Shown: piece after piece, positions 37,004 to 64,000 of the stretch
Position numbering within the stretch: the stretch's first letter is position 1
Layout of the letters: the number at the start of each line of letters is the position of its first letter
Assembly: GCA_963676565.1 (NCBI GenBank)
Contig: OY781089.1
Span: 2,688,001-2,752,000 of the forward strand
DNA length: 64,000 bases
Direction: 5' to 3'
Source of the DNA: Halarcobacter sp.
GTDB lineage: Bacteria; Campylobacterota; Campylobacteria; Campylobacterales; Arcobacteraceae
Notes under the pieces: model-generated
What the model saw: only the letters and a program-made list of their open reading frames with translations
The model's database searches: none
What the model was told of the DNA's origin: nothing
Position numbers and translations under genes: made by a program

Positions 37004-37017
37004 CGAACAAATGTTCG
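37004..37017. promoter_or_regulatory. palindromic operator CGAACAAATGTTCG
   Basis: 6-2-6 inverted repeat 6 nt downstream of TATAAT (36992-36997), at the predicted transcription start. Confidence 0.6.
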
Positions 37018-37020
37018 TAT

Positions 37021-37150
37021 AAAGTTGGTGGAGATTATTTAACTAGTACTCCTTAAATTATATTTAGTATATTTCCCATTAACTTTTTATTTTAGGGTTG
37101 CTTTTTATAGTTTTCATATGGTTATCAAACTCTTTGCAATCCTAATTTTT
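37021..37150 (+). ncRNA. candidate sRNA or structured leader with anti-SD loop
   Basis: Stem 37021-37031/37076-37086 with ACTCCTT in the loop; second stem TTAGGGTTGC/GCAATCCTAA followed by a T run. Confidence 0.35.
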
Positions 37151-37167
37151 AGTGTTTAAGGGTATAA

Positions 37168-38310
37168 ATGAATAACAATAAGTCTTATCTGATTATTATA
37201 TTATCAATACTATCAGCTATTGCACCTATTTCTATTGCCACATACCTTCCTTCTATGCCTACAATGGCGGAACACTACAAAGTTAATATATCTGACATAG
37301 AATTAAGTTTATCTATTTTTATGTTTGGATTTTCATTAGGACAGATTTTTGGAGGACCCTTTTCAGATGCAAAAGGAAGAAGATTCTCTTCACTTGTTGG
37401 TCTTTTAGGTTACTCATTTTTTAGTTTTTTAATTACATCTTCAACATCAGTTTATGAATTATGGATATATCGATTCCTAGAAGCATTTTTTGGTGGTTTG
37501 ATTATAGTTAATGCTGCTGCAATTATTAGAGATTTATACAAAGGTAAAGAAGCAGCTAAATATTTTTCTATTCTAGGAAGTTTGAGAACAATAGTTCCTA
37601 TGTTAGCCCCTGCTCTTGGGGCTTTAATTCTATTTTTCTTTACTTGGGAAAAGATATTTATCTTTTTAGGACTTTACTCTATGTTAGTTGCTTTTTTAAT
37701 ATTTAAAGATTTTGAAGAAACATATACTTACTCTAAAAAAAATATTATCCAATCATATTTAATTGTGTTATCCAATAAAAAAGCGATGATAATGATGTTT
37801 GTTCTTGCACTAGGATTTTCTGCTATGTTTTCTATTGTCACCAAATCTTCATTTATATACATCGAATATTTAGGCTTAAGTGTCAATCAATTTGCCTTTT
37901 TTCAAGGCCTTAATTTTGTATTTTTTATGTTAATTGCTGCACTAAATGTAAAATTTTTAAATTATTTTAAACCCAAAAAGATACTTCAATTTGCAATAGT
38001 CACACAAATTATACTTGCATTTCTATTTTTAGTGTTAAATGATTATATAGGATTTATTTTAGTGATATTTTTTATTGTAAGTTATATCTCAATGAATGGT
38101 TTGATTTATGGAAATGCAACAGCACTTATTATGGAAAACTTTCCACAAAATGCAGGTGTAGCTTCTGCTTTAATTGGAGTTTTACAATATGGAACTGCAT
38201 CAATTATCTCATCAATAATTGTTAGTTTTCATTCAAATAGCTTAATTTCTGTAGCACTTGGAATGTTATTTATTTCAAGTGGAGCATTTCTAGTACTAAA
38301 AAAATATTAA
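37168..38310 (+). CDS. Bcr/CflA (DHA1) MFS efflux transporter
   Basis: TYLPSMP, GQIFGGPFSDAKGRR, NAGVASA. Confidence 0.9.
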   Translation: MNNNKSYLIIILSILSAIAPISIATYLPSMPTMAEHYKVNISDIELSLSIFMFGFSLGQIFGGPFSDAKGRRFSSLVGLLGYSFFSFLITSSTSVYELWIYRFLEAFFGGLIIVNAAAIIRDLYKGKEAAKYFSILGSLRTIVPMLAPALGALILFFFTWEKIFIFLGLYSMLVAFLIFKDFEETYTYSKKNIIQSYLIVLSNKKAMIMMFVLALGFSAMFSIVTKSSFIYIEYLGLSVNQFAFFQGLNFVFFMLIAALNVKFLNYFKPKKILQFAIVTQIILAFLFLVLNDYIGFILVIFFIVSYISMNGLIYGNATALIMENFPQNAGVASALIGVLQYGTASIISSIIVSFHSNSLISVALGMLFISSGAFLVLKKY

Positions 38311-38330
38311 ATTAAAGAAAGGATAAAAAA

Positions 38331-39350
38331 ATGGAATATAGATATATAGGAACAAGTGGACTTAGAGTTACTCCAATTTGTTTAGGAACAATGACATTTG
38401 GAAGAATGGCAACAAAAGAAGAAGCTTTTAAAATCATGGATAAAGCATATGATGCTGGTATCAATTTTTTTGATAATGCAGAGATGTATCCCGTACCTCC
38501 ACGGGCTGATTTAGTTGGTTTATCTGAAGAGATTATGGGTGAATGGATGAAAAGTAAACCAAGAGAATCTTTAATTGTAGCAACTAAGGTTGCAGGTGCA
38601 GCTAATGGAAGATTTGCAGCTCCTGTTAGACATGGATTAACTGCTATTGATAGATTTCATATTGAAAGAGGAATTGAGGGAACTTTAAAAAGACTAAAAA
38701 CTGATTATATTGACCTTTACCAAGTTCACTGGCCAGATACAGTTGTACCATTAGAAGAATCAATGGAGGCAATGGATAGATTAGTTCAAGCAGGAAAAGT
38801 AAGATACATAGGAACTAGTAATGACTCAGCATATGGATTAACAAAAGCAAATGAAATTTCTAAATACAATAAACTAGCTAGATTTCAATCTATTCAAAAT
38901 AACTTCTCACTAAATGAGCCTAGATTTTTTGATGAATTAGCCCATGTTTGTAGAAAAGAAAAAATTTCACTTCTTCCTTATTCACCACTTGCAGGGGGAG
39001 TTTTAACTGGAAAATATCAAGATAGAACTTTGCCTGAAGGTTCTAGATTTAATGAATACAAAGCTTTAAATCTTCCAAGATTGGAAGCAATGAGAAATAG
39101 ATTTATAAATGAAAAAACTTTAAGTACTACAGAAAAATATATGCAAATCGCAAAAGAACATGGTATGAATGTTACAACTTTAGCAGCTGCTTGGAGTAAA
39201 CAATGGGATTTTGTTGCAAGTACAATTATTGGGGTTAGAACTGCCGAACAATTAGATGATATCTTACCAGCTTTAGAACTTACACTAAGTGATGAAATAA
39301 TGGATGCTTGTAAAAAGGTACAACAAGAGATTTTATATCCTATGGGATAA
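38331..39350 (+). CDS. aldo/keto reductase (Tas-like)
   Basis: ICLGTMTFG, DNAEMYPVP, DYIDLYQVHWP, YSPLAGGVLTGKY. Confidence 0.93.
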   Translation: MEYRYIGTSGLRVTPICLGTMTFGRMATKEEAFKIMDKAYDAGINFFDNAEMYPVPPRADLVGLSEEIMGEWMKSKPRESLIVATKVAGAANGRFAAPVRHGLTAIDRFHIERGIEGTLKRLKTDYIDLYQVHWPDTVVPLEESMEAMDRLVQAGKVRYIGTSNDSAYGLTKANEISKYNKLARFQSIQNNFSLNEPRFFDELAHVCRKEKISLLPYSPLAGGVLTGKYQDRTLPEGSRFNEYKALNLPRLEAMRNRFINEKTLSTTEKYMQIAKEHGMNVTTLAAAWSKQWDFVASTIIGVRTAEQLDDILPALELTLSDEIMDACKKVQQEILYPMG

Positions 39351-39353
39351 ATA

Positions 39354-39384
39354 AAAAAAGGATAGCATTAAGCTATCTTTTTTT
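39354..39384. terminator. bidirectional terminator
   Basis: A run-GATAGC-ATTAA-GCTATC-T run between convergent genes. Confidence 0.7.
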
Positions 39385-40201
39385 AATAGTGTTGAAGTAG
39401 TTTAATAGCTTCTGATGTTTCTTTTGCAGCTTCAATTAAAAGAGGTAATACTTTCTTCTTCAATGTTTCTGTATTTTTATAACTTAAATGGGAACCTATA
39501 TTCATAGCCCCTATCATCTTATTTTCTCTATTATAAATTGGTGCAGCAATTGAAAGAAGACCATCTTCAATCTCCTCTTCAACAATCTGATACCCTTGAT
39601 TTTTTTCATCTAATAACTTTTTATATAAAGTATCAGGGTCTTTTATACTTTTTGATGTGTACTCTTTATAAGGTAATTTCAAAAGATAATTATAAAGCTC
39701 TTTTTCATCCATATGAGACATAAATAATCTTCCTGTTGCAGTATATGCTGCTGGTAGTCTAGAACCAACATGGATACCCTCATTTAAAATTCTTGTTGCA
39801 GGTACTCTCATAATACAAATAACATTTTGTCCATCTAAAATTGAAATAGAACATGATAAGGTACACTCATCAACTACTCTTTTAATATTTTTATATGCAA
39901 TATCTGTCCATGGTAGAGAAGCAAAATAACTATATCCTAACTCTATTACTTTAGGAGTTAAAGAAAAAAAGTTATCATTGTGAGAAACATAACCTAAAGA
40001 TTCCAAAGTTAAAAGAAGTCTTCTAGCACTAGCTCTGGTTATATCAACTTTCTTTGCAACATCAGAAAGGGTCATATTCGTATTTTCGTGATCAAAAGCT
40101 TTTATTACACTAAGACCTTTAATAAAAGCTGTTACTATCTCTTTATTATCAATTTCATTTTCTACTTTTGAAGTCATAACTTTATTTTTTTTCCTTGGCA
40201 A
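39383..40201 (-). CDS. IclR family regulator of the PcaR/PobR/PcaU type
   Basis: KGLSVIKAF...TLSDVA...TRASARRLLLTL, GSRLPAAYTATGR. Confidence 0.92.
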   Translation of the reverse strand: MPRKKNKVMTSKVENEIDNKEIVTAFIKGLSVIKAFDHENTNMTLSDVAKKVDITRASARRLLLTLESLGYVSHNDNFFSLTPKVIELGYSYFASLPWTDIAYKNIKRVVDECTLSCSISILDGQNVICIMRVPATRILNEGIHVGSRLPAAYTATGRLFMSHMDEKELYNYLLKLPYKEYTSKSIKDPDTLYKKLLDEKNQGYQIVEEEIEDGLLSIAAPIYNRENKMIGAMNIGSHLSYKNTETLKKKVLPLLIEAAKETSEAIKLLQHY

Positions 40202-41066
40202 TTAAAATTCCTCCTGAAATAATAGCTAAAATTCCTATGATTCCCAAATAGCTTGGGAAATCGTCACCTAAAATAAGTCCAATTATCAATGAAAATATGA
40301 TTACAGAATAACCTGTAGCTCCTACAATACCAGCTCGAGTAACTCCATATGCTTTAGTCATATATATCTGCCCTACTGATGCGGTAAATCCAATACCACC
40401 AATTAAAACCCACTCAAAAGTGTTTGGTAATACAAACTCTCCCATCATAAAATCAAAAAATTCACTGTGGTAATTTATTGATAATAACATAGAAGCCAAA
40501 GGAACAATTGAACCTATACCCATAAAACTTAAAACAATCACTCTAGTATCATAATATTTTCTAAGTTCTCTAATACTTGTAAAAGCTAAAGCAGCACATA
40601 CAGCATTTAAAATACCAAAGATATGTGCCTTTTCAAAAACCATTCCATCAGGATTCATAACCATAAACATACCACTAAATCCCAATAATATAGCAAGCCA
40701 ACCTTTGGGTCCAATTTTTTCTTTTAAAAACCACATGGCAAAGATTGCCGTAAAAAGAGGAGACATTCTAGAATATGTAACAGCATCAGCCAGTGAAATA
40801 TTTGCAATATTATAAAAGAAACTCAACATGGCAATAAGACCAATAGCAGCTCTAAAAAATAGTAAAAATGGCTTTCCCCCAGTTTGTTTTAAAGGTGATT
40901 TAAAAAATGTTAACAGTACAATACAAATACCAATAAAATTTCTAAAAAAAACTATCTCAATTGTGGGTAGACTTTCTGCTAAAACTTTAGCCATAGCACT
41001 CATTAAAGCTAAACAAATTGAAGATATCAACATAAATAATACACCTTGATTTATTTGTCTAAGCAC
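40182..41066 (-). CDS. DMT/EamA family transporter
   Basis: EIVFFRN, FLKEKIG, GQIYMTKAY; about 10 TM. Confidence 0.9.
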   Translation of the reverse strand: MLRQINQGVLFMLISSICLALMSAMAKVLAESLPTIEIVFFRNFIGICIVLLTFFKSPLKQTGGKPFLLFFRAAIGLIAMLSFFYNIANISLADAVTYSRMSPLFTAIFAMWFLKEKIGPKGWLAILLGFSGMFMVMNPDGMVFEKAHIFGILNAVCAALAFTSIRELRKYYDTRVIVLSFMGIGSIVPLASMLLSINYHSEFFDFMMGEFVLPNTFEWVLIGGIGFTASVGQIYMTKAYGVTRAGIVGATGYSVIIFSLIIGLILGDDFPSYLGIIGILAIISGGILIAKEKK

Positions 41067-41162
41067 TGAGAAACCTTTTATATTTTTAGGAATTATATTT
41101 GTTTTTTACTTAATATGTTATTATTACGCACAAAAGTTCGTTTTTATATAAAAAGGTTACAA

Positions 41163-41594
41163 ATGGAAATATGGAAAAAAAATCTTACAGTGGATGAAAT
41201 AAATGAATTCAGTAAAAATACTGCTGCTGAAAGTTTAGGGATTATAATCACTAATTTGACAAAAAATAGTTTAGAAGGACAAATGCCAGTTAATGAGAAA
41301 ACTTGCCAACCTAGAGGTCTTTTACATGGAGGTGCATCAGCACTAATGATTGAGACTTTAGGAAGTCTAGCTGGATATTTAGCCGCACCCAAAGATGATG
41401 CGATTGTTGGCATGGAAATAAATGCAAACCATATTACAGGGGTAAAAAAAGGAAACTTTGTAAAAGGGATTGCAACGCCTTTACATATAGGTAAAACAAC
41501 TCATGTATGGGAAGTTAAGATTTATGAAAATGACACAAATAAACTTGCTTGTGCGGGAAGAATAACCCTTGCAGTGATAAAAGAAAAGATATAA
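41163..41594 (+). CDS. hotdog-fold thioesterase (MenI/EntH-like; start moved to MEIWKK)
   Basis: QPRGLLHGGAS..IETLGS, VGMEINANH; AAAGG RBS. Confidence 0.9.
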   Translation: MEIWKKNLTVDEINEFSKNTAAESLGIIITNLTKNSLEGQMPVNEKTCQPRGLLHGGASALMIETLGSLAGYLAAPKDDAIVGMEINANHITGVKKGNFVKGIATPLHIGKTTHVWEVKIYENDTNKLACAGRITLAVIKEKI

Positions 41595-41601
41595 AGAAAA
41601 T

Positions 41602-42759
41602 CTAATTTTCTTTATATCTTCCTAATATTAAAAAAGAACTTAATGTTAAGACCAAAATACTTATTGCTAATATAAAAAAATCTTCACTTTTAAAACTTAA
41701 TACAATAGCAGAAACAAAAGATGCCATTCCAAATTGAAGAACACCTGCAACAGAAGAGGCAACACCTGCATTTTTAGAAAAAGAGTTCATAGCTAAAGCC
41801 AAAGAATTACCAAAAATAAATGCCATTAAACCAGTATAACTTATCAAGTAAACCATTGTTTCTATTAAAGTTATATCTTTATAATTTAATAAAAAAAGTA
41901 TACAAATAAAAGTTTGAATTAAAAGTGTTATTTTCATAATTTTTAAAATCTCAAAATGTTTTAATAATGTGATATTAAATTTTGTTAATAACATCAGTGC
42001 TACAAAATGAGAACTAAAATAAAAAGGAAAAAAATCTGTTGAAATACCAAAAGATTCTATATAAATAAAAGATGCCTTTGATATAAAAACAAAAATACCT
42101 GAAAAACTTAATCCCAATACAAACATAGAAATCATGGCTTTTTTGTTAGATAAAACTAAATAAAATGAATTCAAAATATTTTGTTTTTCATTGCTTTTTG
42201 TATTATCTAAATATTTTTGAACGATAAATAAAATGATAAGAGGATATATTGTTAAAAATATAAAAACTCCTTTCCATGGAAAGAAATGGATTATAAAAGC
42301 GCCAATAGCTGGTGCAATTAAAGGAGCTACACTTCTAACTGTACCTATTATTGAAAAAACTTTTGCTGCTTCATTCCCTTTAAACTTATCCCTTACAACG
42401 GCTGAAGAATTTACTAAAACAATACCACCAAAAAATGACTCAAAAAATCTATAAATCCAAATTTCATAAATTGAATGACTAAATATGATTAAGAGACTAA
42501 AAAAAGAGAATCCTATTAAACCATAAATAGAACTACTTCTTCTTCCATAATTATCTGAAATTACTCCACCAAAAATTTGTCCAACTGATAAGCCTATTAA
42601 GAAAATAGCTAAAGATAGTTCAACTTCTTCAAGTGACACACCATATGTGGAAGCAATATCTGGGATAGAAGGGATATATGTATCAATCCCCATTGGACCT
42701 AGTGAGGCTAAGAGTGCTAATAATATAGCTAAATTAACATGATTTGATAACTTAAACAA
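41602..42759 (-). CDS. Bcr/CflA (DHA1) MFS efflux transporter
   Basis: DTYIPSIP, GQIFGGVISDNYGRR, NAGVASS. Confidence 0.9.
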   Translation of the reverse strand: MFKLSNHVNLAILLALLASLGPMGIDTYIPSIPDIASTYGVSLEEVELSLAIFLIGLSVGQIFGGVISDNYGRRSSSIYGLIGFSFFSLLIIFSHSIYEIWIYRFFESFFGGIVLVNSSAVVRDKFKGNEAAKVFSIIGTVRSVAPLIAPAIGAFIIHFFPWKGVFIFLTIYPLIILFIVQKYLDNTKSNEKQNILNSFYLVLSNKKAMISMFVLGLSFSGIFVFISKASFIYIESFGISTDFFPFYFSSHFVALMLLTKFNITLLKHFEILKIMKITLLIQTFICILFLLNYKDITLIETMVYLISYTGLMAFIFGNSLALAMNSFSKNAGVASSVAGVLQFGMASFVSAIVLSFKSEDFFILAISILVLTLSSFLILGRYKEN

Positions 42760-42927
42760 GATTTACTGCTTTAAGGAAGTTAGCATTTTTATAAAAATAA
42801 TGCAATTACAATATTTAATAAAAATGCTTGAATATAACTTTTTTAGGAAATATATTAGCCTAAATAAAGCTAATAATTTCCGCCTATGTAATAACTCACT
42901 TCCACTCAAAAGATATTCCTATTTTAA

Positions 42928-45063
42928 TTAATCTAAAACAATTAATGCATCAAGAGCAAAAACACCTTTAGCTTTTGCAACTAAAGGATTAATCTCTACT
43001 TCAGAAATTCTTTCATTTGATACAATCAAATCAGCAATTTTAGTTACTGTTTTTGCAATTGCCTTGATATCTACAGCTTCAGTACCCCTTGCACCTTTCA
43101 ATAATGCTGCAGATTTTAAAGAAGAGATTTCATCAACGATTGCATCAACACCTAAGTCAGGAGTGATTAAACATACATCTTTTAAAACTTCTATCCAAAT
43201 ACCTCCAAGACCAACAAGAACTACTACACCCCATTGTTCATCTCTTCTAGCACCAATTACAATTTCAGCACCTAAATTAGCCATACCTTCAATTAAAATA
43301 CCATCTAATTTAATTCCAGTAGATTCAATACTTGTCATCATTTTATTAAAAGCAACTCTTAATTCATCATCACTTTTAATATTTAACACTACACCACCAG
43401 CATCAGTTTTATGTGCTAATTGTGCAGATTGAGCTTTTAAAACTACAGGATATGACAATTCATTTGCAATTTTGATAGCTTCATCTTCATCTTTTGCTAA
43501 AGCACCTTTTGGAATAGGAATATCAAGTTTTTCTAAAATCTCTTTTGACTTATACTCAGGTACATTTCCTGAATCAAGTTGCGAAATCATATCAATCTTA
43601 ATAATTTCATTTTCCCTTCTTTGTTTAGCTTTATTTCTACAAAGTTTATTAACATTTGATAAGGCTTTCACTGCACTTTCCATTGATTTACCTAATACTA
43701 CACCATTATCTCGAGCTAATGTCATAAACTCTGGCTCATAAACATTTGATTCATCTAAAGGTACATAAATAGCAGGTTTTTCAGGATGTTTTTTCATACT
43801 ATCAATGAAACCATTTAAAAATATACTTTTTGTACCAATATCTTGGTCAGTTGGTAAAACAACTAAGGTAGAACCAATCTTAGGTTCAGTTAATAAAAGA
43901 TCTAGCCCTTTACCAACAAGTTCAGGATCACGTGCAGCTTCAACACCTACATCAAATGGGTTTCTAGCAGGTAAATATTCAGGAATAATATCTTTTAGTT
44001 TTTCTTCAATATCACTTGATAATGCAGCCATAACTAAATTACAATCTTCAAATTGGTCAGTTGCAATTGCGCATACAGCCCCTGAATGTGTCAATAAACC
44101 AACTTCTCCACTTACTGGTTTTGGAAATCTAAGTAATAATTCACTTAAAGTAATTAATTCATCTAAAGAATTAACCATAGCAACACCAGCGTTAAGAAGT
44201 TTTGTTTCCATTAGAGTATAATCACCTGTTAAAGAACCAGTATGTGATTGAGTAATACTTCTTGAAGCTTCACTTCTTCCTGAATGCATTAAAATTACAT
44301 TTTTATTAACAGCGTTTGCTCTTTTAACAGCAGATAGTAAATTTTGTGGATTTTTAATCTCTTCAGCATATATTGCAATTGCTCCTGTATATTCATCTTC
44401 AACAAAGAAATCAATTAAATCAGATAATTCAATATCTGCTTGATTTCCAATTGTTACAGAATAACTTGTAGGAACTGCTCTTTTACCCAATGATTGACCA
44501 ATAAATAAACCAATTCCACCACTTTGAGTAATAATTGCAACTCCTTTTGAACCATTTTTATCAAATGGAACTTGCTTTGGCAAATCAATTAATACAAGAT
44601 GAAAATTGTCAACATAATTAAAATAACCAATACAATTTGGTCCAACTAATCTAATGTTGTTTTCATGGGCATATTTTCCAATTTTATCCTGTAAAGCGTG
44701 ACCTTCCTCACCTAATTCTGCAAAACCAGCACTCATACAAACAACCGTTTTAACATCAATAGTTTTCAAATCAACTATTGCATCATATACACTTGCTGCA
44801 GGGATTGCTAAAATTCCTAAATCAATACCTTTTGGTAAGTCATTAAGATCTGTCTTAATTTCAATACCATCAATATCTGCCTTGTTTCTACCAAGTAAAT
44901 TTATCTCACCTTCATAACCATTTAGTTTTAAAGTTTTGATAATATTTCTTGCACTAGAACTAGGTTTTGCAGAGGCTCCTAAGATTACAACTGATTTTGG
45001 ATTCAATAATGAAGAGATAGATTCAACTGTCTCTTCATTAGTTCTTTTTATTGCTTTATTCAA
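42928..45063 (-). CDS. fcs: NDP-forming acyl-CoA synthetase (fused alpha/beta), probable feruloyl/coumaroyl-CoA synthetase
   Basis: LLNPKSVVILGAS, GPNCIG, QSGG, SHTGSL, HKTDAGGV, EINPL; in an operon with ech and vdh. Confidence 0.8.
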   Translation of the reverse strand: MNKAIKRTNEETVESISSLLNPKSVVILGASAKPSSSARNIIKTLKLNGYEGEINLLGRNKADIDGIEIKTDLNDLPKGIDLGILAIPAASVYDAIVDLKTIDVKTVVCMSAGFAELGEEGHALQDKIGKYAHENNIRLVGPNCIGYFNYVDNFHLVLIDLPKQVPFDKNGSKGVAIITQSGGIGLFIGQSLGKRAVPTSYSVTIGNQADIELSDLIDFFVEDEYTGAIAIYAEEIKNPQNLLSAVKRANAVNKNVILMHSGRSEASRSITQSHTGSLTGDYTLMETKLLNAGVAMVNSLDELITLSELLLRFPKPVSGEVGLLTHSGAVCAIATDQFEDCNLVMAALSSDIEEKLKDIIPEYLPARNPFDVGVEAARDPELVGKGLDLLLTEPKIGSTLVVLPTDQDIGTKSIFLNGFIDSMKKHPEKPAIYVPLDESNVYEPEFMTLARDNGVVLGKSMESAVKALSNVNKLCRNKAKQRRENEIIKIDMISQLDSGNVPEYKSKEILEKLDIPIPKGALAKDEDEAIKIANELSYPVVLKAQSAQLAHKTDAGGVVLNIKSDDELRVAFNKMMTSIESTGIKLDGILIEGMANLGAEIVIGARRDEQWGVVVLVGLGGIWIEVLKDVCLITPDLGVDAIVDEISSLKSAALLKGARGTEAVDIKAIAKTVTKIADLIVSNERISEVEINPLVAKAKGVFALDALIVLD

Positions 45064-45084
45064 TTTAAAAACCTTGATTCTAAA

Positions 45085-55522: not shown

Positions 55523-56737
<1,215 letters not shown>

Positions 56738-56754
56738 TCATTATAAAAGCTTTT

Positions 56755-56793
56755 TGTTCCATATAAAATACTAATGTTCCTCTATATGGGACA
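56755..56793. promoter_or_regulatory. probable IclR operator(s) between pobA and the divergent IclR gene
   Basis: TGTTCC-TCTATAT-GGGACA at 56775-56793 plus a repeated TGTTCC at 56755. Confidence 0.5.
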
Positions 56794-56858
56794 AAAAAGC
56801 AAATTTTTCGGGAATTTAGTATAAAATATAGAAAATTTATGAATTTTGGAGTATTTAT

Positions 56859-57623
56859 ATGAACAAAAGTTCGAATCTATCTTCAGTTGAAAATGCACTG
56901 AAAATATTAGAATGTTTTACAATTGATGATACAGAAAAAAGAGTAACTGAGATTTCAAATGAACTTGGATTGGCAAAAAGTACGGTGAGTCGTCTTTTAA
57001 AAACTTTACTAAACCAAGGTTATGTAAAAAAGAATCCTACTAATCAAAAATACTCTTTAGGAAATAAAGTATTAACTTTATATAGCTCACTAATGTCTAA
57101 TATGGAAATAGTAAAAGAGGCTCATCCATATCTAGAAGAATTAGCAAAAGAAACTTCTGAGTCTGTACAACTTGCAGAACTGGATAATAAAAAAGTTATC
57201 TATATGGAACAAATCAAATCTAGTTTTCCTATACAGATTTTTGCTCATATTGGAAGAGTTAATCCCGTTCATTGTACAAGTTCAGGAAAACTATTACTTG
57301 CCTACCAAGATTTTCAAACTATTGAAAATATTTTGAGTAATGGATTAGAAAAATTTACTCCATATACAATCACAGATGAAAATAAATTAAAAAAAGAACT
57401 TTTAGAAATAAGAGACTTAGGTTACTGCTATATAGAAAATGAATTTATAGATGGTATTGTTTCAATAGCTGCTCCAATACGAGATTATAATAAAAATGTA
57501 GTAGCAGCAGTTTCGCTTGTGGGACCTATTCAAAGAATAAATGGAGTTAAAGCTCAAAAATATATAAATAGAGTAGTTCAGACTGCAAAAGATATATCTT
57601 ATAGTATGGGGTATATGTATTAG
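56859..57623 (+). CDS. IclR family regulator
   Basis: SVENALKILE, LAKSTVSRLL, HCTSSGKLLLA. Confidence 0.93.
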   Translation: MNKSSNLSSVENALKILECFTIDDTEKRVTEISNELGLAKSTVSRLLKTLLNQGYVKKNPTNQKYSLGNKVLTLYSSLMSNMEIVKEAHPYLEELAKETSESVQLAELDNKKVIYMEQIKSSFPIQIFAHIGRVNPVHCTSSGKLLLAYQDFQTIENILSNGLEKFTPYTITDENKLKKELLEIRDLGYCYIENEFIDGIVSIAAPIRDYNKNVVAAVSLVGPIQRINGVKAQKYINRVVQTAKDISYSMGYMY

Positions 57624-57666
57624 TGAAATTGGTTGGCATTACATTTTTCAACGTAATGTATAAAGC

Positions 57667-59646
57667 TTATCTTAAATCTAAAAAATCCTGAATATCTTTG
57701 CATGATTCTTCATATCCTTCTTTATCTTTTAATATTTTATATGCTTTTTCTAAATATTCGAATGATTGATTTTCAAAACCTATAGATGCATAGCAAATAC
57801 CTAATAAAGTATTATCTTCAAGTTCTCCTAAATCTTTAAGTTCTTCTAGATTATCTTTAGCTTCATCAAAGTTTTTATCATAAAAATATATTTCTGCTAA
57901 TGTTTCACAACAAATTTTAATATTAGGGATATCCTTCTGTGGCTGTAATTTCATTTTATTCTTTGCATCTTTTAAATTCTTTATTGCTTCTTCTTTATTT
58001 CCTTTGTATTTATAAATTAATCCAAAATTCAATAATGAAGTTAAAACAGAATGATAATTTTCTCCAAATTTATCTAGATATATTTGATAACCTTCATTAA
58101 GATTTAATAATGCTTCATCATAATTTTCTGCTCTCATATATATTCCCGCTAAATTACAATATGTAGCTGCTATATCTGTATGATTGTTATCTAAAACTTT
58201 TTTTCTAATAATTAAAGCTTTTTTTAAATAGTCGATTGCTGTTTGATAATCTCTTTTGATAGAATATGCTGCACCTAAATAAGTATAGTTTGATGCAATA
58301 TAATTATTATCTTTAGTATAAATTTTTTTATTAATATCAAGAGATTTTTTTATATATTTTATTGCCTCATCTGCATTATATAATTGAACATTATAATAAC
58401 CAATATTATGATAACACATTGAAAGGTCTAAAGGAGATTTTATCTTTTGATTATCATAAATCTTTAGTGCATCAAGAGAAATATTAATTGCTTCTTTGTT
58501 ATTTCCCTGCCATGATATAATTCTAGCTAAGCTAACAAGTGTCATTGCAACTGCAATTGAATCGTTACCAAAAACTTTTTTTCTTATATCTAATGCACTA
58601 CTTGTTAATTCTTTTGATTCTTTAAAAAGACCTAACATAGAATAACAATCTGATTTTTGACTATATGAGTCAGCTAAAGAATATAAGTCTTCTTTGAAAT
58701 AGTTAGTTTGAATATTTATAGCAGTATTTATATGTGAAAGGGAAGTTTTATAGTCACCATTTAAGTAATATGCTCTTGACAGATCTCTATAAATCATTAG
58801 TTCAAATATTGGATCAGATAAATTATATTTTTTATATAGTTCTATTGCCTTTTCTAAATGTTTTATTGCTTTTTTATCATCTGATATTTGATTATAAGTA
58901 GCCCCTAAATATCCTTCCAAATAATGAGTCATATTAGAATCATTATTTTCATTTAGTAATTCATTCAAAATATTGATTTTATAATCATATTTATGGATTC
59001 TTCCATACAATTCTGCAAGTTGAACTTGATAATATACATTTTTATCTAATTCTAAACCTTTAATATAATAATTAATTGCATTAGAGTAATCATTTCTTAA
59101 ACTAGAAATATCACCTAAAGTGAAATAAGTTTGTGCAGTATTTTTATTTTCATTATCTAATCTATTCAGCAATAATTCTTCAGCCTTTTCAAATTCTGCA
59201 TTAGCAATAAATGAATTAATCTGTGTATCTTTTTTATCTTTTGAGGTATTTTTCATAACCTTTTCATAAGTGTCTTTTAAAGCATTAAATTCTTTATTTT
59301 TTTCTTCTAAACTTTTATCTTTTTCTTCTAATTCTTTTAATAATCTAGTAATTACTTTTTCTGAAGGATTAATTTTTTCAGAAATTTTATTAATAGAATC
59401 TTCTGATAAATCAACTTTTGAATATCTTGAAATTAATTCAGGTATTAAAATTGAAATAATGATTCCTATGATTAAAATACCTAGAATTGTTGAACTAAAT
59501 ATTTTATTAAGTGGAAGATTAGGATCTAACAATAAATTAATAAAAATAGTAATAGGTGAATAATAGTAATACAATATCAAAAGAACAAATAGAATTGCAG
59601 CAAATGTATAAAATATATATTTTGGATTTTTCATAAATATCTTCAA
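57667..59646 (-). CDS. membrane-anchored tetratricopeptide repeat protein
   Basis: 2 N-terminal TM segments, coiled coil, multiple A..Y.NLG...KAL.I TPR units. Confidence 0.85.
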   Translation of the reverse strand: MKIFMKNPKYIFYTFAAILFVLLILYYYYSPITIFINLLLDPNLPLNKIFSSTILGILIIGIIISILIPELISRYSKVDLSEDSINKISEKINPSEKVITRLLKELEEKDKSLEEKNKEFNALKDTYEKVMKNTSKDKKDTQINSFIANAEFEKAEELLLNRLDNENKNTAQTYFTLGDISSLRNDYSNAINYYIKGLELDKNVYYQVQLAELYGRIHKYDYKINILNELLNENNDSNMTHYLEGYLGATYNQISDDKKAIKHLEKAIELYKKYNLSDPIFELMIYRDLSRAYYLNGDYKTSLSHINTAINIQTNYFKEDLYSLADSYSQKSDCYSMLGLFKESKELTSSALDIRKKVFGNDSIAVAMTLVSLARIISWQGNNKEAINISLDALKIYDNQKIKSPLDLSMCYHNIGYYNVQLYNADEAIKYIKKSLDINKKIYTKDNNYIASNYTYLGAAYSIKRDYQTAIDYLKKALIIRKKVLDNNHTDIAATYCNLAGIYMRAENYDEALLNLNEGYQIYLDKFGENYHSVLTSLLNFGLIYKYKGNKEEAIKNLKDAKNKMKLQPQKDIPNIKICCETLAEIYFYDKNFDEAKDNLEELKDLGELEDNTLLGICYASIGFENQSFEYLEKAYKILKDKEGYEESCKDIQDFLDLR

Positions 59647-59844
59647 TTTCTGCTTATTTTAACAAATATATATAAAAATACGTCTTAAAATTATTATATT
59701 GAAACTACACCCCTGAAACTTAACCTGAGGTTGAATCTCTACTTTTTATTAAGAAACGCTTCTCATGCATGATTAAGGACACTTAAAGAAATAATATACA
59801 TCATTTTGCTAAAATGGTTTATATTTTAAAGATTGGAGTAAATT

Positions 59845-60024
59845 ATGACTGCGCCAAAACAAGAAGCAAAAAAGATTATTGATTCATTGCCTGAAGATGC
59901 ATCTTATGATGAAATAATAAAAGAATTAGCTTTTGATAGAATGATTCAAAGAGGACTAAAAGACTCAAAAGAAAATAAAACTATTTCAAACAAAGAGATG
60001 AAAAACAGAATCAAACAATGGTAG
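59845..60024 (+). CDS. putative antitoxin, 59 aa (absent from the ORF track)
   Basis: GGAG RBS; MTAPKQEAKKIIDSLPEDASYDEIIKELAFDRMIQRGLKDSKENKTISNKEMKNRIKQW; overlaps the toxin start. Confidence 0.8.
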   Translation: MTAPKQEAKKIIDSLPEDASYDEIIKELAFDRMIQRGLKDSKENKTISNKEMKNRIKQW

Positions 60025-60311
60025 AGATACATTGGACAAATGAAGCAGAACTTTGGCTTAAAGATATACACGATTATATCGCTTTAGATAAAAAATCAAT
60101 TGCCAAAAAAGTTGTAACTGAAATATATAATAAAGTTCAAATACTACAATCTTATCCACGAATCGGTTATGAGTATGAAAATGATGAGAATAAAGAGATA
60201 AGAGTACTACTTTATGGTCATTATAGAATTGCATATTTAATTAAAGATGAAAATACAATTGATATATTGGGTGTATTTCATGGAGCATTAGATATCGAAA
60301 GATATTTGTAA
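60018..60311 (+). CDS. RelE/ParE family toxin
   Basis: WTNEA...LKDIHDYIA, YPRIG, HYRIAY, ILGVFHGA. Confidence 0.9.
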   Translation: MVEIHWTNEAELWLKDIHDYIALDKKSIAKKVVTEIYNKVQILQSYPRIGYEYENDENKEIRVLLYGHYRIAYLIKDENTIDILGVFHGALDIERYL

Positions 60312-60367: not shown

Positions 60368-60400
60368 AAATAAAATAGACTAAAAAAGTCTATTTTATTT
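60368..60400. terminator. bidirectional terminator
   Basis: AAATAAAATAGACT-5nt-AGTCTATTTTATTT. Confidence 0.8.
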
Positions 60401-60909
60401 TAGTGTGTTAATTTAGCTAACTGAATAATCATATTATTAGCTGTATCTTCATTTAATGGTTTTTCATATGTTGTAAGAAGTTCTCTTGCTATAATATTTG
60501 CACCTAAATGTTGAAACATCATTCTCATAGCTTGAAGCCCTTTAGCTCCACCTCCACCACTGTGAGTTGCTACTGCTACAACTTTTTCATTAAAAGCATC
60601 TCTCCAGTTATCAGTTGCCCTTGAAGTCCATGCCATAGCATTGTTAAGTACTGGTGGCATAACTCCATTGTATTCAGGAGCAACCACAATAAAAGCCTTC
60701 AAATCTAAAATTCTCTCTGCCAAATATTTTGCAATCTCAGGCACACCATTTTTTTCTTCCTCTTTAGTACTATATAAAGGTAAATCTAAATCAACTAAAT
60801 TGATAAGTTCAACTTGACACCCCTGCTCTATTGCTAACTCTTCAAGTTTTAATGCTAATTTTTGATTATTCCCTGAGCTTGCAACTAATATTCCTATTTT
60901 AAACATCAT
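60400..60909 (-). CDS. NAD(P)H-dependent FMN reductase (flavodoxin-like)
   Basis: APEYNGVMPPVLNNA.AW.SR, HSGGGG. Confidence 0.9.
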   Translation of the reverse strand: MMFKIGILVASSGNNQKLALKLEELAIEQGCQVELINLVDLDLPLYSTKEEEKNGVPEIAKYLAERILDLKAFIVVAPEYNGVMPPVLNNAMAWTSRATDNWRDAFNEKVVAVATHSGGGGAKGLQAMRMMFQHLGANIIARELLTTYEKPLNEDTANNMIIQLAKLTH

Positions 60910-60911
60910 AA

Positions 60912-62372
60912 TTATCCTTCTTTTATACCTGAGTTAATCATAAACTCTTCAACTTGATTCCATGTAAAATTCTTTTGTGCATTTACATGTCCAAACATTT
61001 GATTTCTTTGTTGTGAAGTTAAATAATATCTTTCATATAATTCAACTCTTCCCCCAAGTGCAGAGCCTGCAAAATCCCAAGCGATTCTAAATATTTGTGC
61101 TCTTTCTTGTGCACCTTCATCATTTGCACTTGGCATATATTTATTTAATAAATCTTTCATCTCAGGATTTTTATAAGAATTAATTGTAGGAGTTGCAAGT
61201 AAATTATGACTTCCAATTGTTTTGATAATATCATTTACTCTTATCATCCAAGCAGGCATATTAGCTATTAACGCTCTCATTGGACTTTCATCAAAGAAAA
61301 ACGCACCATTACCCCAGTCATGAGCTCCTTCCATTCCAGCTTTTATTGATGACCTTGTCAATTGTGAGTAAGACCAAATCTCACCTAACATCATAATAAC
61401 TTCAGGTCTTTTATCTGTTTTGATAATTTTTGCCATTCTATGGCATAAATCATATGCAAACTCCAATTTAACCGCTGCTCTAATTCCTGTTTGTTGAGTG
61501 ATATTTCCATATCTTCCTAATTGATCAATTACAGTTTTATTATAAAATGCCAAATCACCATCCATAAATACTCTATTTAATGGAATCTCAACTTTATCAA
61601 AAATCACATAAGCATCTTGCTCATCAAATCTAGAAGAAAATGGTGCATCTTGAATTGAAGCATTTACTTCATAATGGTCTCTACAAACCATTATTACACC
61701 CTTTGTATTTACAGGAATAGAAAACATTAAAGCATGGTCAGCACTTCCATTACTAGTAATTGGTGCAGAAGGATAAACAAAAAGTTCATCTGCAAATGGC
61801 CCAAGGGTTGCTAAGATTTTTGCACCACTTACAACTATACAATCATCTCTTCTTTCAACTACTTTAAATGCTACTTCACCATTTATCCCATCTAAATCTG
61901 GCTGACTTTTATCAGGTTGTGGTTGAATAATTGTATGGGTTAAAGATAAATCTTTTTCAAGAACTTCTCTATAAAAAGCTTCTAAATTATCCGCCCACTT
62001 GTGATGACCAGCTGCTCTAAAAGCATCAGTTCTACTTACATAACCTGTTAGTGCAACATTACAATAATCAGGTGTTCTTCCTAACATTCCATTTGAATAT
62101 TTTGCAAGTCGTTCAAAACATTTTGCTCTTGCTTCTAAATCTTCTTTGTTTTTAGGCAAAATTAAACTAGCTGTCATTAACTCACCTGTAACTTCATCAG
62201 TAACTAAACAATCATCAGCATATTTTTGTTGCCAATCAAAATACCCTGCCATACCTTGCAAAGAACCTTTAAAAGATGGATGTTCAAATAGATTGACTTT
62301 TTTACCATCAATCCAAATCTCTCTTTCATCTTTTAAACCATCTAAGTATTGTTTTCCGTTTCTTGCTGCCAT
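60912..62372 (-). CDS. HpaB-family two-component flavin monooxygenase, oxygenase component
   Basis: YLDGLKDEREIWIDG, GRTPDY, VSGAKILAT, SSRFDEQDA, GRVELYE. Confidence 0.9.
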   Translation of the reverse strand: MAARNGKQYLDGLKDEREIWIDGKKVNLFEHPSFKGSLQGMAGYFDWQQKYADDCLVTDEVTGELMTASLILPKNKEDLEARAKCFERLAKYSNGMLGRTPDYCNVALTGYVSRTDAFRAAGHHKWADNLEAFYREVLEKDLSLTHTIIQPQPDKSQPDLDGINGEVAFKVVERRDDCIVVSGAKILATLGPFADELFVYPSAPITSNGSADHALMFSIPVNTKGVIMVCRDHYEVNASIQDAPFSSRFDEQDAYVIFDKVEIPLNRVFMDGDLAFYNKTVIDQLGRYGNITQQTGIRAAVKLEFAYDLCHRMAKIIKTDKRPEVIMMLGEIWSYSQLTRSSIKAGMEGAHDWGNGAFFFDESPMRALIANMPAWMIRVNDIIKTIGSHNLLATPTINSYKNPEMKDLLNKYMPSANDEGAQERAQIFRIAWDFAGSALGGRVELYERYYLTSQQRNQMFGHVNAQKNFTWNQVEEFMINSGIKEG

Positions 62373-62425
62373 ATCTTCTCCTTAAAATTGTCCCAATTTT
62401 GAAGGGACTTTTAGTTTTTTTAAAA

Positions 62426-62445
62426 TTTAGAACATTTGTTCTAAA
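62426..62445. promoter_or_regulatory. palindromic operator at the hpaB-like promoter
   Basis: TTTAGAAC-ATTT-GTTCTAAA abutting the minus-strand -10 TATAGT (62446-62451). Confidence 0.65.
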
Positions 62446-62631
62446 ACTATAACTACATAAATTTTAAAGTTCGCTTAACGCACATTAGTTACAAATAAGC
62501 TTAGAATAGCATTAAAATAGCATTTTTTTAAGAAGTATAGATATCTAGGTAGTTTACTGGTAAGATAAATTTTTAAGTCAAAATTTATGCAAAAAAGAAA
62601 TTTTAAAATTTTTTAAAAATTTATGAAAATA

Positions 62632-63288
62632 TTAGCTATTTGTTAGATTTTTGATTTTTTTTTGAACTAAATCAATAGAACTAATCAATGAAGATTTTTC
62701 CAAACCTTTTTGTGTGTGATAAGGTTTTAGTGTATATAAAAGATTTAATATTCCATGAAGTTTTCTAAGGTTTTCATCCTCAACTTTTGTAAATATCCAG
62801 TAAAGTTCCCATTGTGAACCAATTACCCAAGTATTTGAACAAACAAATTGAAGCTCCTCTTCATTTAAACTTATCATATATCCATATTTTGCTTGATGTA
62901 AAAATAGATCTTTTAACTCTTTGGCTTTTTCTAAAACTCTTTTCTCTATTGTTTCTTTTACTTTTGGATATGTTTTATATAAGTTACTAATCTCTAATCT
63001 TAAAAAGGCACATTTTTTTTCCAATTCCATTTGTGTTGAAAAAAGTGCGTAATAATCAAAGGGTAAATCAATGTCATCTTTAATAGAAGTTAAATGACTA
63101 CTAATAGATTCCATATAATTTTCATAAATGGCAATAATAATCTCTTCTTTATTTTTGAAATAGTAATACAAATTCCCAACACTAATACCTAAATCATCAG
63201 CTATATGTCTAGTTGAACTATTCATACAACCTTTTTCATTAAATAGTTTTGTTGCAGTTTTTAATATATCATCTCTTCTAGTTGACAA
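62632..63288 (-). CDS. TetR family regulator
   Basis: ILKTATKLFNEKG...RHIA...ISVGNLYYYFKNKE. Confidence 0.93.
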   Translation of the reverse strand: MSTRRDDILKTATKLFNEKGCMNSSTRHIADDLGISVGNLYYYFKNKEEIIIAIYENYMESISSHLTSIKDDIDLPFDYYALFSTQMELEKKCAFLRLEISNLYKTYPKVKETIEKRVLEKAKELKDLFLHQAKYGYMISLNEEELQFVCSNTWVIGSQWELYWIFTKVEDENLRKLHGILNLLYTLKPYHTQKGLEKSSLISSIDLVQKKIKNLTNS

Positions 63289-63344
63289 TTTTTACCTTAA
63301 AATGAGAATTATTGGATTTTAGCTAGATGAAGGATAAAAGAAGA

Positions 63345-64000
63345 TTAATCTTCTTCTTTTATCATTTGTTTTAATACTCTTCTTGCAAGTTTTCCACCTG
63401 CATCAATGTCTAAACTTATCAGACTTCTATTTGGGAATTTCTCTAGATTTTTTTGTTGAAATTCTAAAACTTCCAAATCCTCTTCAAAAATACCACCCTG
63501 ACCTTTTAAAATATCTTGAGTTAATTGATCGTCTTCTGGCTTAAAACTTCTAGCCATCCCCCAAAAATACCACATAGAAGTTTCACTTTGTGGAGTCATA
63601 AAATCTACAACTGTACATCTAACTTTATCTTCTTTTGGTGCATCTTTACCACCTTTATCTTTTAAAGCTACTCCCACATCAATTAAAACTGCCCCTGGTG
63701 GTACAAATTTTGATTTTTGCCATCTATCAACTTTTTTTGTAGGGTCAAGTTTATTATGTTTCATACACATTTGCCAAAAAGGAGGTGCTTCAATGTCATT
63801 CATATATCTACTTGTTACCACAAAGCCATCTTCATAATCAGTAGTTACCGGACTTTCATCTATCTCTTCTTGACCGATGCTTGAACCATGAACATATTTT
63901 TCATGGGTTAAATCCATTAGATTATCAATCATAAATCTATAATCACATTTTATATCAAAAACTCCACCTGCATATGCCCACTCAGGATTATCATGCCATT
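63345..64000 (-). CDS. vanA: vanillate O-demethylase oxygenase subunit, 5' part outside the window
   Basis: Frame continues to the edge (WHDNPEWAYAGG...CDYRF); DNLMDLTHEKYVH, APPFW, VDRWQ, WYFWGMAR, IDAGG. Confidence 0.92.
   Translation of the reverse strand, partial: WHDNPEWAYAGGVFDIKCDYRFMIDNLMDLTHEKYVHGSSIGQEEIDESPVTTDYEDGFVVTSRYMNDIEAPPFWQMCMKHNKLDPTKKVDRWQKSKFVPPGAVLIDVGVALKDKGGKDAPKEDKVRCTVVDFMTPQSETSMWYFWGMARSFKPEDDQLTQDILKGQGGIFEEDLEVLEFQQKNLEKFPNRSLISLDIDAGGKLARRVLKQMIKEED

Follow-up and report, generated by a model that had tools for sequence, protein, structure and literature searches.

Can a member of the Campylobacterota, a phylum whose members are seen as feeding on small organic acids, on hydrogen and on reduced sulfur, live on the phenolic acids of plants? 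The question is raised by a stretch of 64,000 nucleotides (nt) of a Halarcobacter sp. chromosome (GenBank assembly GCA_963676565.1, contig OY781089.1, positions 2,688,001 to 2,752,000), called here the window, in whose right-hand part an earlier note, made from the letters alone, had placed a lignin-monomer funnelling island. We analysed this island within its genome (G000, a complete single contig of 3,340,668 bases in which the window is C1:2688001-2752000) and among its relatives. In our reading it is a chromosomal and apparently long-resident island of about 42.5 kb, whose genes probably serve the uptake of plant- or lignin-derived phenolic acids and their O2-dependent oxidation to pyruvate and oxaloacetate. 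The pathway is a known one with textbook logic and all its enzymes come from known families; what is new is the clade that carries it.

Extent and setting of the island

Open reading frames (ORFs) were assigned to families with Pfam and NCBIfam profiles at their curated cut-offs, and relatives of solved structure were used as anchors. Coordinates past the window end are extrapolated (L001 coordinate plus 62000; adding 2,688,000 gives the position on G000:C1). The island runs from window position 37168 to about 79456 (Table 1). Its final 15.5 kb lie past the window end, and the 27 kb or more given by the earlier note holds as a lower bound, the span of 42.5 kb emerging when ORFs are read past the window. 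It is bordered by nadE (34991-36883) on one side and by djlA (extrapolated 79815-80618) on the other, and the window left of 37000 contains ordinary housekeeping and sensory genes. The genes form four co-directional modules, with intramodule gaps of -38 to 31 nt except for 83 nt between dctP1 and ech, and every module has its own DctP solute-binding protein and a regulator beside it. They are acad673-ech-dctP1-vdh-ligase with the divergent marR1; pobA-araC-dctP2-dioxygenase-aldolase-like-yitT with the divergent iclR2; mobA-like-dctP3-hydrolase-vanA, adjoined by hpaB, its FMN reductase gene and tetR; and tautomerase-ligI-ligK-ligJ-ligA-ligB-ligC-dctP4-dctQ-dctM, followed by the porin gene. All genes named by the earlier note were recovered in place between 37168 and 64000 by Pfam and NCBIfam, including its two DctP proteins and its five regulators (two IclR, one MarR, one AraC and one TetR, by Pfam). 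Transport and efflux functions in the window part of the island comprise two Bcr/CflA MFS pumps, EamA, YitT and the two DctP.

The note had also described AT-rich, host-like sequence devoid of integrases and insertion sequences, and this description agrees with the measured values. The GC content of the island is 30.5%, against 28.4 ± 1.2% for the genome, which places it at the 96.7th percentile among windows of the same size. The ORFs scanned in the window and in L001 include no integrase or transposase family (no search for border direct repeats was made), and no tRNA gene lies in the window or the following 20 kb. The assignment of the host to the Campylobacterota, on which the note's proposal hinged, was confirmed as well: NadE is 96% identical to that of a Halarcobacter sp. 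metagenome-assembled genome (MAG) and 89, 88 and 86% identical to those of Arcobacter sp., Halarcobacter sp. and uncultured Campylobacterales MAGs, and the genome groups with Halarcobacter and Arcobacter genomes, sharing its genus with 24 other species, within a family represented by 184 species genomes. At the lig locus, the named relatives are MAGs of Halarcobacter, Arcobacter and Aliarcobacter. By these sequence affinities the host is a Halarcobacter-like member of the Arcobacteraceae.

An apparently complete operon for protocatechuate 4,5-cleavage

The earlier note had proposed that ring-cleavage genes be sought in the flanks, and ligAB together with the remaining 4,5-cleavage genes were found just past the window end. 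LigA and LigB are separate subunits that both score above curated cut-offs, as expected of a protocatechuate 4,5-dioxygenase, and the position and order of the ligI-like and ligJ-like genes in the operon fit the 4,5-cleavage pathway. No intradiol dioxygenase family matched anywhere in the genome, and only one other ORF of the LigB family, of 261 amino acids (aa), occurs elsewhere in it. Protocatechuate 4,5-cleavage is the sole dedicated ring-cleavage route found in this genome. In the established pathway, peripheral routes converge on protocatechuate and the lig enzymes end in pyruvate and oxaloacetate. Here, LigAB would open protocatechuate at the 4,5 bond, and LigC, LigI, the 4-oxalomesaconate tautomerase, LigJ and LigK would convert the product into pyruvate and oxaloacetate.

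Predicted routes from phenolic acids to protocatechuate

The hydroxycinnamate module is anchored by the hydratase-lyase Ech, which matches the solved feruloyl-CoA hydratase/lyase 7xwc at E 7e-117 and shares 70-76% identity with homologues from Alpha- and Gammaproteobacteria. The last gene of this operon had been called fcs-like in the earlier note. It does encode an acyl-CoA ligase, of another type than Fcs: the protein has the three-part architecture of NDP-forming acyl-CoA synthetases, lies in the same operon as ech, a setting expected of a FerA/FCS1-type ligase, and has ADP-forming CoA ligases as its best solved relatives. Pfam found no AMP-binding adenylate-forming domain in it, and an AMP-forming Fcs/HcaC identity is ruled out by the domain set. 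FCS1, according to excerpts of PMC6388921, is a characterised ADP-forming feruloyl-CoA synthetase of the same architecture. Residue 282 of the island ligase, a histidine within the Succ_CoA_lig domain, is a candidate for the conserved phosphohistidine (His267 in FCS1). Homologues of the ligase (32-37% identity) directly follow Ech in 36 of the 80 best proteobacterial Ech loci among species representatives. The aldehyde dehydrogenase matches a vanillin dehydrogenase structure at 4e-107, and most of the solved structures ranked 2-10 for it are dehydrogenases of vanillin, salicylaldehyde, 4-hydroxybenzaldehyde or benzaldehyde. Together, the ligase would turn p-coumarate, ferulate or caffeate into its CoA thioester, Ech would hydrate and cleave this into acetyl-CoA and the benzaldehyde by the CoA-dependent, non-beta-oxidative route, and the dehydrogenase would deliver 4-hydroxybenzoate, vanillate or protocatechuate.

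The operon starts with an acyl-CoA dehydrogenase of 673 aa that adjoins Ech in all six Ech-bearing relatives (80-97% identity). Its solved relatives are distant VLCAD-like enzymes (E 1e-20), and protein-atlas look-ups gave only generic family names for it and for the aldolase-like protein described below. It probably opens an entry for saturated (dihydro) acids by desaturating dihydro-hydroxycinnamoyl-CoA. Its homologues (52-54%) occur in only two of the 80 proteobacterial Ech loci, L073 and L104, both from marine gammaproteobacterial MAGs, which may be a lead to the source of the gene. The divergent marR1 gene is kept in the six Ech-bearing relatives and would be the likely regulator; MarR repressors (HcaR, FerC, CouR) control such operons elsewhere, to judge from titles in the references of PMC6388921.

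Three further enzymes would feed the same hub. PobA is predicted to convert 4-hydroxybenzoate into protocatechuate. The 631-aa MobA-like flavoprotein encoded past the window end, which would do the same with 3-hydroxybenzoate, matches the solved 3-hydroxybenzoate hydroxylase 2dkh over its full length (E 1e-205, 687 bits) and a phenol-2-monooxygenase subfamily profile above its curated cut-off. VanA would convert vanillate, with an electron donor other than VanB. The HpaB-like protein has 4-hydroxyphenylacetate 3-hydroxylases as best solved relatives (E 1e-62 to 1e-66) and its partner in the place of an HpaC-type reductase belongs to the FMN_red family; this pair probably hydroxylates a monophenol in ortho position, and the hpaB-FMN reductase-tetR trio is kept in three relatives.

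The pobA operon is tightly packed, with intergenic gaps of 3-14 nt, and the divergent iclR2 lies beside pobA in seven of 11 related loci. The best solved relative of its dioxygenase is the ether-cleaving (R)-phenoxypropionate/alpha-ketoglutarate dioxygenase (5e-63), followed by TauD (2e-43). As a separate observation, this dioxygenase and the aldolase-like gene (51831-53534) adjoin pobA as a pair here and in six of 11 related loci, and further titled loci carry the pair.

Proposed uptake through a shared TRAP transporter

The presence of DctP, DctQ and DctM by Pfam and NCBIfam identifies a transporter of the TRAP (tripartite ATP-independent periplasmic) type. Four DctP matches and one DctM match of the genome scan lie inside the island, with one DctQM pair. 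Since there are four DctP and a single DctM, three orphan binding proteins would share one membrane unit. The other three island DctP are 52-55% identical to DctP1, and the DctP profile matches TRAP binding proteins of solved structure with E-values of 1e-75 to 1e-92; the solved entries 7nsw, 7nrr and 7nr2 are presumably of the TarP family. Phenolic acids would thus enter through the OprD-type porin and then be captured by four paralogous binding proteins, one per module, feeding the single DctQM. A TRAP binding protein of Rhodopseudomonas palustris binds coumarate, ferulate and caffeate, as parts of PMC3610893 report.

Distribution, conservation and age

The occurrence of the island was surveyed in the 184 Arcobacteraceae species genomes and in an even sample of the phylum (401 genomes including G000, 377 of them from other families). 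Within the family, LigB is present in 11 of 184 genomes, spread over 5 of 22 genera, PobA, searched within the family, occurs in the identical set of 11, and Ech is found in seven genomes of three genera, in each of which it shares a contig with LigB at a distance of 17-27 kb. In the phylum sample, LigB was detected in three genomes (G000, one family member and G254, the only one of the 377 from other families) and Ech in two, both Arcobacteraceae, hence in none of the 377. The distribution check suggested by the earlier note thus returned a rare and patchy trait.

Comparison by tblastn of 43 proteins (island and flanking genes) with regions from 11 relatives revealed the full island, with the same gene set and order, in six Arcobacteraceae (G034, G043, G051, G086, G093 and G101). 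G106, G108, G164, G065 and G254, the last belonging to another family, have only a core (iclR-eamA, pobA, TRAP genes, lig operon), and the lig operon also occurs in the titled loci L148, L150 and L151. The order of the lig genes is identical in all ten Campylobacterota-like loci L142-L151. The extended order tautomerase-ligI-K-J-A-B-C-dctPQM is seen in nine of them (in L151, which has the lig order, dctPQM was not found). The 35 non-Campylobacterota loci listed (L152-L186) all lack it. The island lies beside DjlA and thioredoxin in G000, G086 and G106 (core only), and adjacency to NadE was confirmed in G000 and G086. No clean empty site was found: in G104 and G105, of the same genus and without the island, nadE and djlA are about 5 kb apart in another order with poor synteny, and as their gene order differs, no exact insertion borders were drawn.

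Phylogenies point to long residence. A quick IQ-TREE phylogeny of Ech, with 87 rows, unites the seven Arcobacteraceae sequences in a single clade (SH-aLRT 100) with no resolved sister among the 80 mostly alpha- and gammaproteobacterial sequences. In a LigB tree of 85 rows, 15 Campylobacterota-like rows stand on one side of a branch with SH-aLRT 100; this group was picked partly by similarity and gene order, six rows duplicating titled loci were omitted, and row L150 is titled only 'Proteobacteria bacterium'. LigB identity is 67-92% within this group and at most 56% outside. The neighbours of Ech are just 32-43% identical to their proteobacterial counterparts, compared with 70-76% for Ech itself. 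The mean identity of the seven lig proteins follows that of GlnRS (Spearman 0.83 over ten genomes, descriptive only).

Substitution rates were estimated against G086. All 30 comparable island genes are under purifying selection, with ratios of nonsynonymous to synonymous substitution rates (dN/dS) of 0.011-0.133 at dS 0.21-0.78; for the flanking NadE and DjlA, dN/dS is 0.062 and 0.070 and dS 0.29 and 0.42. No sister group with the same gene order, which could designate a donor, was found among the 80 best proteobacterial Ech loci and 70 non-Campylobacterota LigB loci, both capped samples of species representatives. These data fit a single old acquisition, or origin, in the family and subsequent vertical inheritance with numerous losses, and the ancient acquisition supposed in the earlier note accords with the trees, the synteny and the substitution rates. 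Because the Ech tree does not match genus labels exactly, an old exchange within the family is also conceivable.

Alternative readings

Were the island a recent horizontal import from a proteobacterium, or an assembly or binning artefact, it would have little bearing on the Campylobacterota. The resemblance of Ech to proteobacterial proteins, a GC content slightly above the genome mean and a toxin-antitoxin insert within the island could be cited in its favour. However, the 3.34-Mb genome is one complete contig, in which the island is flanked by housekeeping genes with 89-96% identity to those of Halarcobacter relatives, its GC content is far from typical proteobacterial values, and no integrase, insertion sequence or tRNA was found. 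The two clades, the low identity of the Ech neighbours, a range of island dS that brackets that of the flanks and the tracking of GlnRS by the lig proteins all argue against it too; on this comparative evidence we consider recent import extremely unlikely and reject it. The island could otherwise serve mainly in tolerance, detoxifying and exporting antimicrobial plant phenolics and aldehydes rather than supporting growth. This would account for the two Bcr/CflA pumps, the EamA exporter, YitT, the aldo-keto reductase and the thioesterase, and several papers on Arcobacter and phenolics treat these, by their titles, as antimicrobials. Such a role is improbable in view of the full seven-gene ring-cleavage operon ending in pyruvate and oxaloacetate, of four uptake binding proteins of high-affinity type and a porin, which speak for import rather than export, and of the perfect co-occurrence of PobA and LigB in 11 of 184 genomes.

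Several points weigh against phenolic acid oxidation as the function of the island. For this organism it is a prediction from genes. The RdpA-like, aldolase-like, alpha/beta-hydrolase, thioesterase and aldo-keto reductase genes carry no substrate assignment. IclR1, DctM and the LigI-like protein are placed below cut-off or at family level, and the LigJ-like protein only in a Pfam superfamily; HpaB reaches 294.2 against the 480.2 cut-off of its equivalog TIGR02309, its family membership being given by Pfam only, and the aldehyde dehydrogenase matches no NCBIfam equivalog at cut-off. A weak hint in its favour comes from sequencing runs: near-identical sequence of the hydroxycinnamate operon, whole or in part, was found in 20 run rows from 10 studies. 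Contigs of one metatranscriptomic library, X19, cover 24 of 30 bins of window 39000-58000 and are 90-99% alike there. Its deepest piece, on dctP1-ech, has a mean word depth of 116, compared with at most 16 in the other listed pieces. This is a suggestive hint of expression only: the listed pieces differ by 4-6% of letters and belong to a related strain, a control from a silent stretch is absent, and DNA may be present in the library. The other three runs compared, among them a metagenome labelled salt marsh (X10; 12 pieces, those listed of 25-35 letters) and a raw-read RNA run (X21; 2 reads), gave nothing usable, and no habitat can be named from them. Lastly, the VanAB of the earlier note is borne out for VanA, a 351-aa protein with Rieske and VanA_C domains, and not for VanB, which was found neither in the flanks, where the note had proposed to look, nor elsewhere in the genome. 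PF00175 had no match at E ≤ 0.01 (11 of 14 control genomes matched), and tblastn with two vanA-adjacent ORFs, that of L058 confirmed by Pfam as VanB-type (Fer2 and NAD_binding_1) and that of L113 picked by position and size, reached no better than E 0.05. The genome has six Fer2 matches, and a VanB-like fusion is not among them. Because no VanB-type reductase was found, the ferulate/vanillate branch may stop at vanillate.

The island might accordingly serve only non-methoxylated phenolics (p-coumarate, caffeate, 4- and 3-hydroxybenzoate and protocatechuate), the VanA-like oxygenase being inactive on vanillate or working with the neighbouring alpha/beta hydrolase on a different substrate; ferulate would in that case go no further than vanillate. 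Besides the missing VanB, this is suggested by the absence of PF00175 from three of the five other island-bearing genomes (G034, G043 and G051) and its presence only on other contigs in G093 and G101, by the constant pairing of vanA with the hydrolase gene (six of six Ech-bearing relatives, with a 28-nt overlap), and by the best solved relative of VanA, which is the dicamba demethylase DdmC and no vanillate enzyme. However, three-component relatives such as dicamba demethylase use a separate ferredoxin and reductase. In addition, VanA is 53-55% identical to six homologues in proteobacterial loci, among them genes of Caulobacter and Sphingomonas loci that adjoin vanB and ech (a vanB-sized ORF follows vanA in both loci examined, L058 and L113, and is confirmed as VanB-type for L058), its Rieske motif C-x-H...C-x2-H is intact, its dN/dS is 0.033, and vanA is present in every Ech-bearing island, which fits a need to handle vanillate from ferulate. 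From its sequence VanA looks functional; it may use another electron donor, or the methoxylated branch may stop at vanillate. On balance, a restriction to non-methoxylated substrates appears possible but rather unlikely. Two candidate donors were discarded: the best plant-type 2Fe-2S ferredoxin sits in a nif-type cluster (NifX-like, NifW, NifZ, flavodoxin), a location that makes it no evident partner, and the FMN reductase near vanA is merely a truncated remnant in G034.

Returning to the oxidation of phenolic acids, a more specific version can be put forward only tentatively: an old lignin-monomer funnel of the Arcobacteraceae's own, wired unlike the textbook, in which one TRAP unit would serve four operon-embedded binding proteins, VanA would draw on the general ferredoxin/flavodoxin pool, and the RdpA-like dioxygenase, partnered by the aldolase-like protein, would channel yet another plant compound to 4-hydroxybenzoate. 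If true, plant phenolics at oxic-anoxic interfaces, for instance in marsh and seagrass sediments, would have genuine consumers in these micro-aerophiles, which carry nitrogen-fixation-associated genes.

Relation to known systems and to the literature

The closest likeness is to Sphingobium sp. SYK-6 (ferBA, lig), which shares the ADP-forming, succinyl-CoA-synthetase-like feruloyl-CoA synthetase beside the hydratase-lyase, an arrangement also seen in the 36 proteobacterial loci mentioned above, many of them from sphingomonads, as well as protocatechuate 4,5-cleavage and a MarR-type regulator (FerC in SYK-6, by title). SYK-6 demethylates vanillate with the tetrahydrofolate-dependent LigM, according to part of bioRxiv 10.1101/2020.07.27.224295, whereas the island encodes a Rieske VanA. 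The gene order also differs, the ligase and LigB are only 32-37% and at most 56% identical to proteobacterial homologues, and the island adds TRAP uptake and the 673-aa acyl-CoA dehydrogenase at the head of the operon. Its logic resembles the hca-pob-pca region of Acinetobacter baylyi ADP1, where hydratase-lyase, aldehyde dehydrogenase, CoA ligase, acyl-CoA dehydrogenase and MarR genes form one operon, joined in a single chromosomal region to pobA, a porin gene and the protocatechuate pathway. ADP1 uses an AMP-forming ligase and the ortho (beta-ketoadipate) route; in the island the ligase is ADP-forming and cleavage is meta (4,5), with no intradiol dioxygenase found in the genome. TarPQM of R. 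palustris is alike in its TRAP binding protein (E-values as given above), but has one binding protein per membrane unit, compared with four paralogous DctP for a single DctQM. VanAB of Caulobacter-type loci (L058, L113) has the same Rieske and VanA_C oxygenase, coupled there to VanB and here to an alpha/beta hydrolase gene. The 3-hydroxybenzoate 4-hydroxylase of Comamonas testosteroni (2dkh) resembles the MobA-like protein over its full length and in a context feeding protocatechuate 4,5-cleavage; the host differs, the island gene shares an operon with dctP3, the hydrolase gene and vanA, and its substrate is a prediction.

The earlier note had supposed such catabolism to be undescribed for the family. 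This stands in so far as a full-text search, with subscription journals and supplements outside its scope, found no paper characterising the cluster or such catabolism in an isolate of the Arcobacter group or of the Campylobacterota; it must be qualified in that two papers attribute aromatic genes to Arcobacter or Halarcobacter at screening level. Parts of PMC10469889 report that Arcobacter, in a coastal enrichment made in situ, reached 6.91% on spruce lignin, with aromatic pathway genes assigned to it at community level, and parts of bioRxiv 10.1101/2024.03.22.586348 list dmp/xyl meta-cleavage genes, a different pathway, for the genome of Halarcobacter anaerophilus. In the available text of a family-wide genomic survey of the Arcobacteraceae (PMC11265409, supplements aside), "aromatic", "vanill", "hydroxybenzoate" and "phenol" are absent.

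The island would provide a concrete genetic basis for the enrichment on lignin described in those parts of PMC10469889. Some 4-6% of Arcobacteraceae species carry an apparently complete pathway from hydroxycinnamates to the tricarboxylic acid cycle that is under selection, and since the predicted pathway uses O2 at six or more steps, it would tie these bacteria to plant-carbon turnover at oxic-anoxic boundaries. Three features vary from known systems: vanA without VanB, four binding proteins per TRAP membrane unit, and the unexplained dioxygenase-aldolase pair. The accepted physiology of a well-studied phylum is thereby widened, with no new kind of mechanism.

Other genes of the island and of the host genome

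Table 1. Features of the island in window coordinates; positions past 64000 are extrapolated. Scores are in bits, followed by the curated cut-off where one applies.
Feature	Position	Strand	Evidence or remark
Bcr/CflA-type MFS pump	37168-38310	+	Pfam MFS_1; TIGR00710 227.7 vs 200.9
NADP-dependent aldo-keto reductase	38331-39350	+	Pfam Aldo_ket_red
IclR regulator (iclR1), PcaR/PcaU/PobR type	39383-40201	-	Pfam IclR_C, HTH_IclR; TIGR02431 261.5, under 284.75
EamA transporter	40182-41066	-	Pfam EamA; overlaps iclR1 by 20 nt
Hotdog (4HBT/EntH-like) thioesterase	41115-41594	+	Pfam/NCBIfam
Second Bcr/CflA MFS pump	41602-42759	-	Pfam/NCBIfam
CoA ligase, ADP-forming (ACD, FerA/FCS1-type), 711 aa	42928-45063	-	CoA_binding_2, Succ_CoA_lig, ATP-grasp_5
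Aromatic aldehyde (vanillin/4-hydroxybenzaldehyde) dehydrogenase, 482 aa	45085-46533	-	Pfam Aldedh 541.8
DctP1, orphan TRAP solute-binding protein	46544-47575	-	Pfam DctP
Ech, hydroxycinnamoyl-CoA hydratase-lyase	47659-48486	-	NF006588 equivalog 430.9 vs 276
Acyl-CoA dehydrogenase, 673 aa	48518-50539	-	Pfam Acyl-CoA_dh_N, Acyl-CoA_dh_1; first gene of operon
MarR regulator (marR1)	50703-51188	+	Pfam MarR; divergent from operon
YitT	51222-51827	-	last gene of pobA operon
Class II aldolase/adducin-like protein	51831-52613	-	NF005451 298 vs 207
RdpA/TauD-like dioxygenase	52620-53534	-	pobA operon; solved-structure relatives
DctP2	53543-54646	-	pobA operon; Pfam DctP
AraC regulator	54661-55512	-	pobA operon
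PobA, 4-hydroxybenzoate 3-monooxygenase	55523-56716	-	TIGR02360 equivalog 613.9 vs 538.7
Second IclR regulator (iclR2)	56859-57623	+	Pfam IclR_C 168; divergent from pobA
TPR protein, 659 aa	57667-59646	-	TPR families
59-aa ORF, partner in ParE pair	59845-60024	+	ORF
ParE-type toxin	60018-60311	+	ParE_toxin, E 8.6e-14
FMN reductase	60400-60909	-	Pfam FMN_red
HpaB-family two-component phenol hydroxylase	60912-62372	-	Pfam HpaB_N, HpaB
TetR regulator	62632-63288	-	Pfam TetR_N
VanA-type Rieske O-demethylase oxygenase, 351 aa	63345-64400	-	Rieske, VanA_C; window holds C-terminal part to 64000; L001 1345-2400
Alpha/beta hydrolase	64373-65092	-	
DctP3	65096-66136	-	
3-Hydroxybenzoate 4-hydroxylase-like (MobA-like) flavoprotein, 631 aa	66152-68047	-	solved-structure match
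MarR2	68326-68748	+	Pfam MarR
OprD-family porin	68784-70172	-	Pfam OprD
DctM	70510-71907	-	TIGR00786 264.7, just under 268.45; Pfam DctM 279
DctQ	71900-72430	-	Pfam
DctP4	72444-73472	-	Pfam DctP
LigC	73502-74440	-	GFO_IDH_MocA, OxRdtase_C 317.6
LigB	74441-75304	-	NF009903 343.7 vs 317
LigA	75282-75707	-	TIGR02792 114.1 vs 108.6
LigJ-like	75727-76761	-	Amidohydro_2
LigK	76763-77521	-	TIGR02798 360.8 vs 304.5
LigI-like	77484-78356	-	Amidohydro_2; nearest equivalog 240.8 vs 500
4-Oxalomesaconate tautomerase	78374-79456	-	NF033377 489.7 vs 440

At the left end of the island, the aldo-keto reductase is kept in seven of 11 related islands (82-97% identity) and the iclR1-eamA pair in all 11 related loci fetched. 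The first MFS pump and the aldo-keto reductase may have a role in tolerance to aldehydes or phenolics. Homologues of the thioesterase (52-81% identity) occur in the six Ech-bearing relatives, and the enzyme could act as a relief valve for aryl-CoA thioesters.

The segment 57667-60311, which holds the TPR gene and a ParE-type toxin-antitoxin pair, is an insert specific to this genome and outside the pathway; the TPR gene was not found in any of the 11 related loci, and GC content drops to 23.4% at 58001-60000. At the same spot, G034 has an AbiEii-type toxin, an HNH-like protein and a truncated FMN reductase of 101 aa (L029 14057-19582). This suggests that defence or toxin-antitoxin cargo has landed repeatedly at the spot between iclR2 and the hpaB/vanA genes, at the junction of the pobA and vanA modules.

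Elsewhere in the genome, the nif-type cluster (G000:C1:718001-728000, L222) comprises NifX-like, DUF269, flavodoxin, NifW, NifZ and 2Fe-2S ferredoxin genes beside rpoN, and from this gene content the host may be diazotrophic. In the window, a flavocytochrome c sulfide dehydrogenase flavoprotein subunit (18214-19497) is consistent with sulfide oxidation by the host. A class I Glu/Gln-tRNA synthetase of 756 aa with a C-terminal GatB/YqeY domain (28049-30319) is 71-96% identical across the family, and a radical SAM protein followed by a DUF4130 protein (21617-23604) forms a conserved pair.

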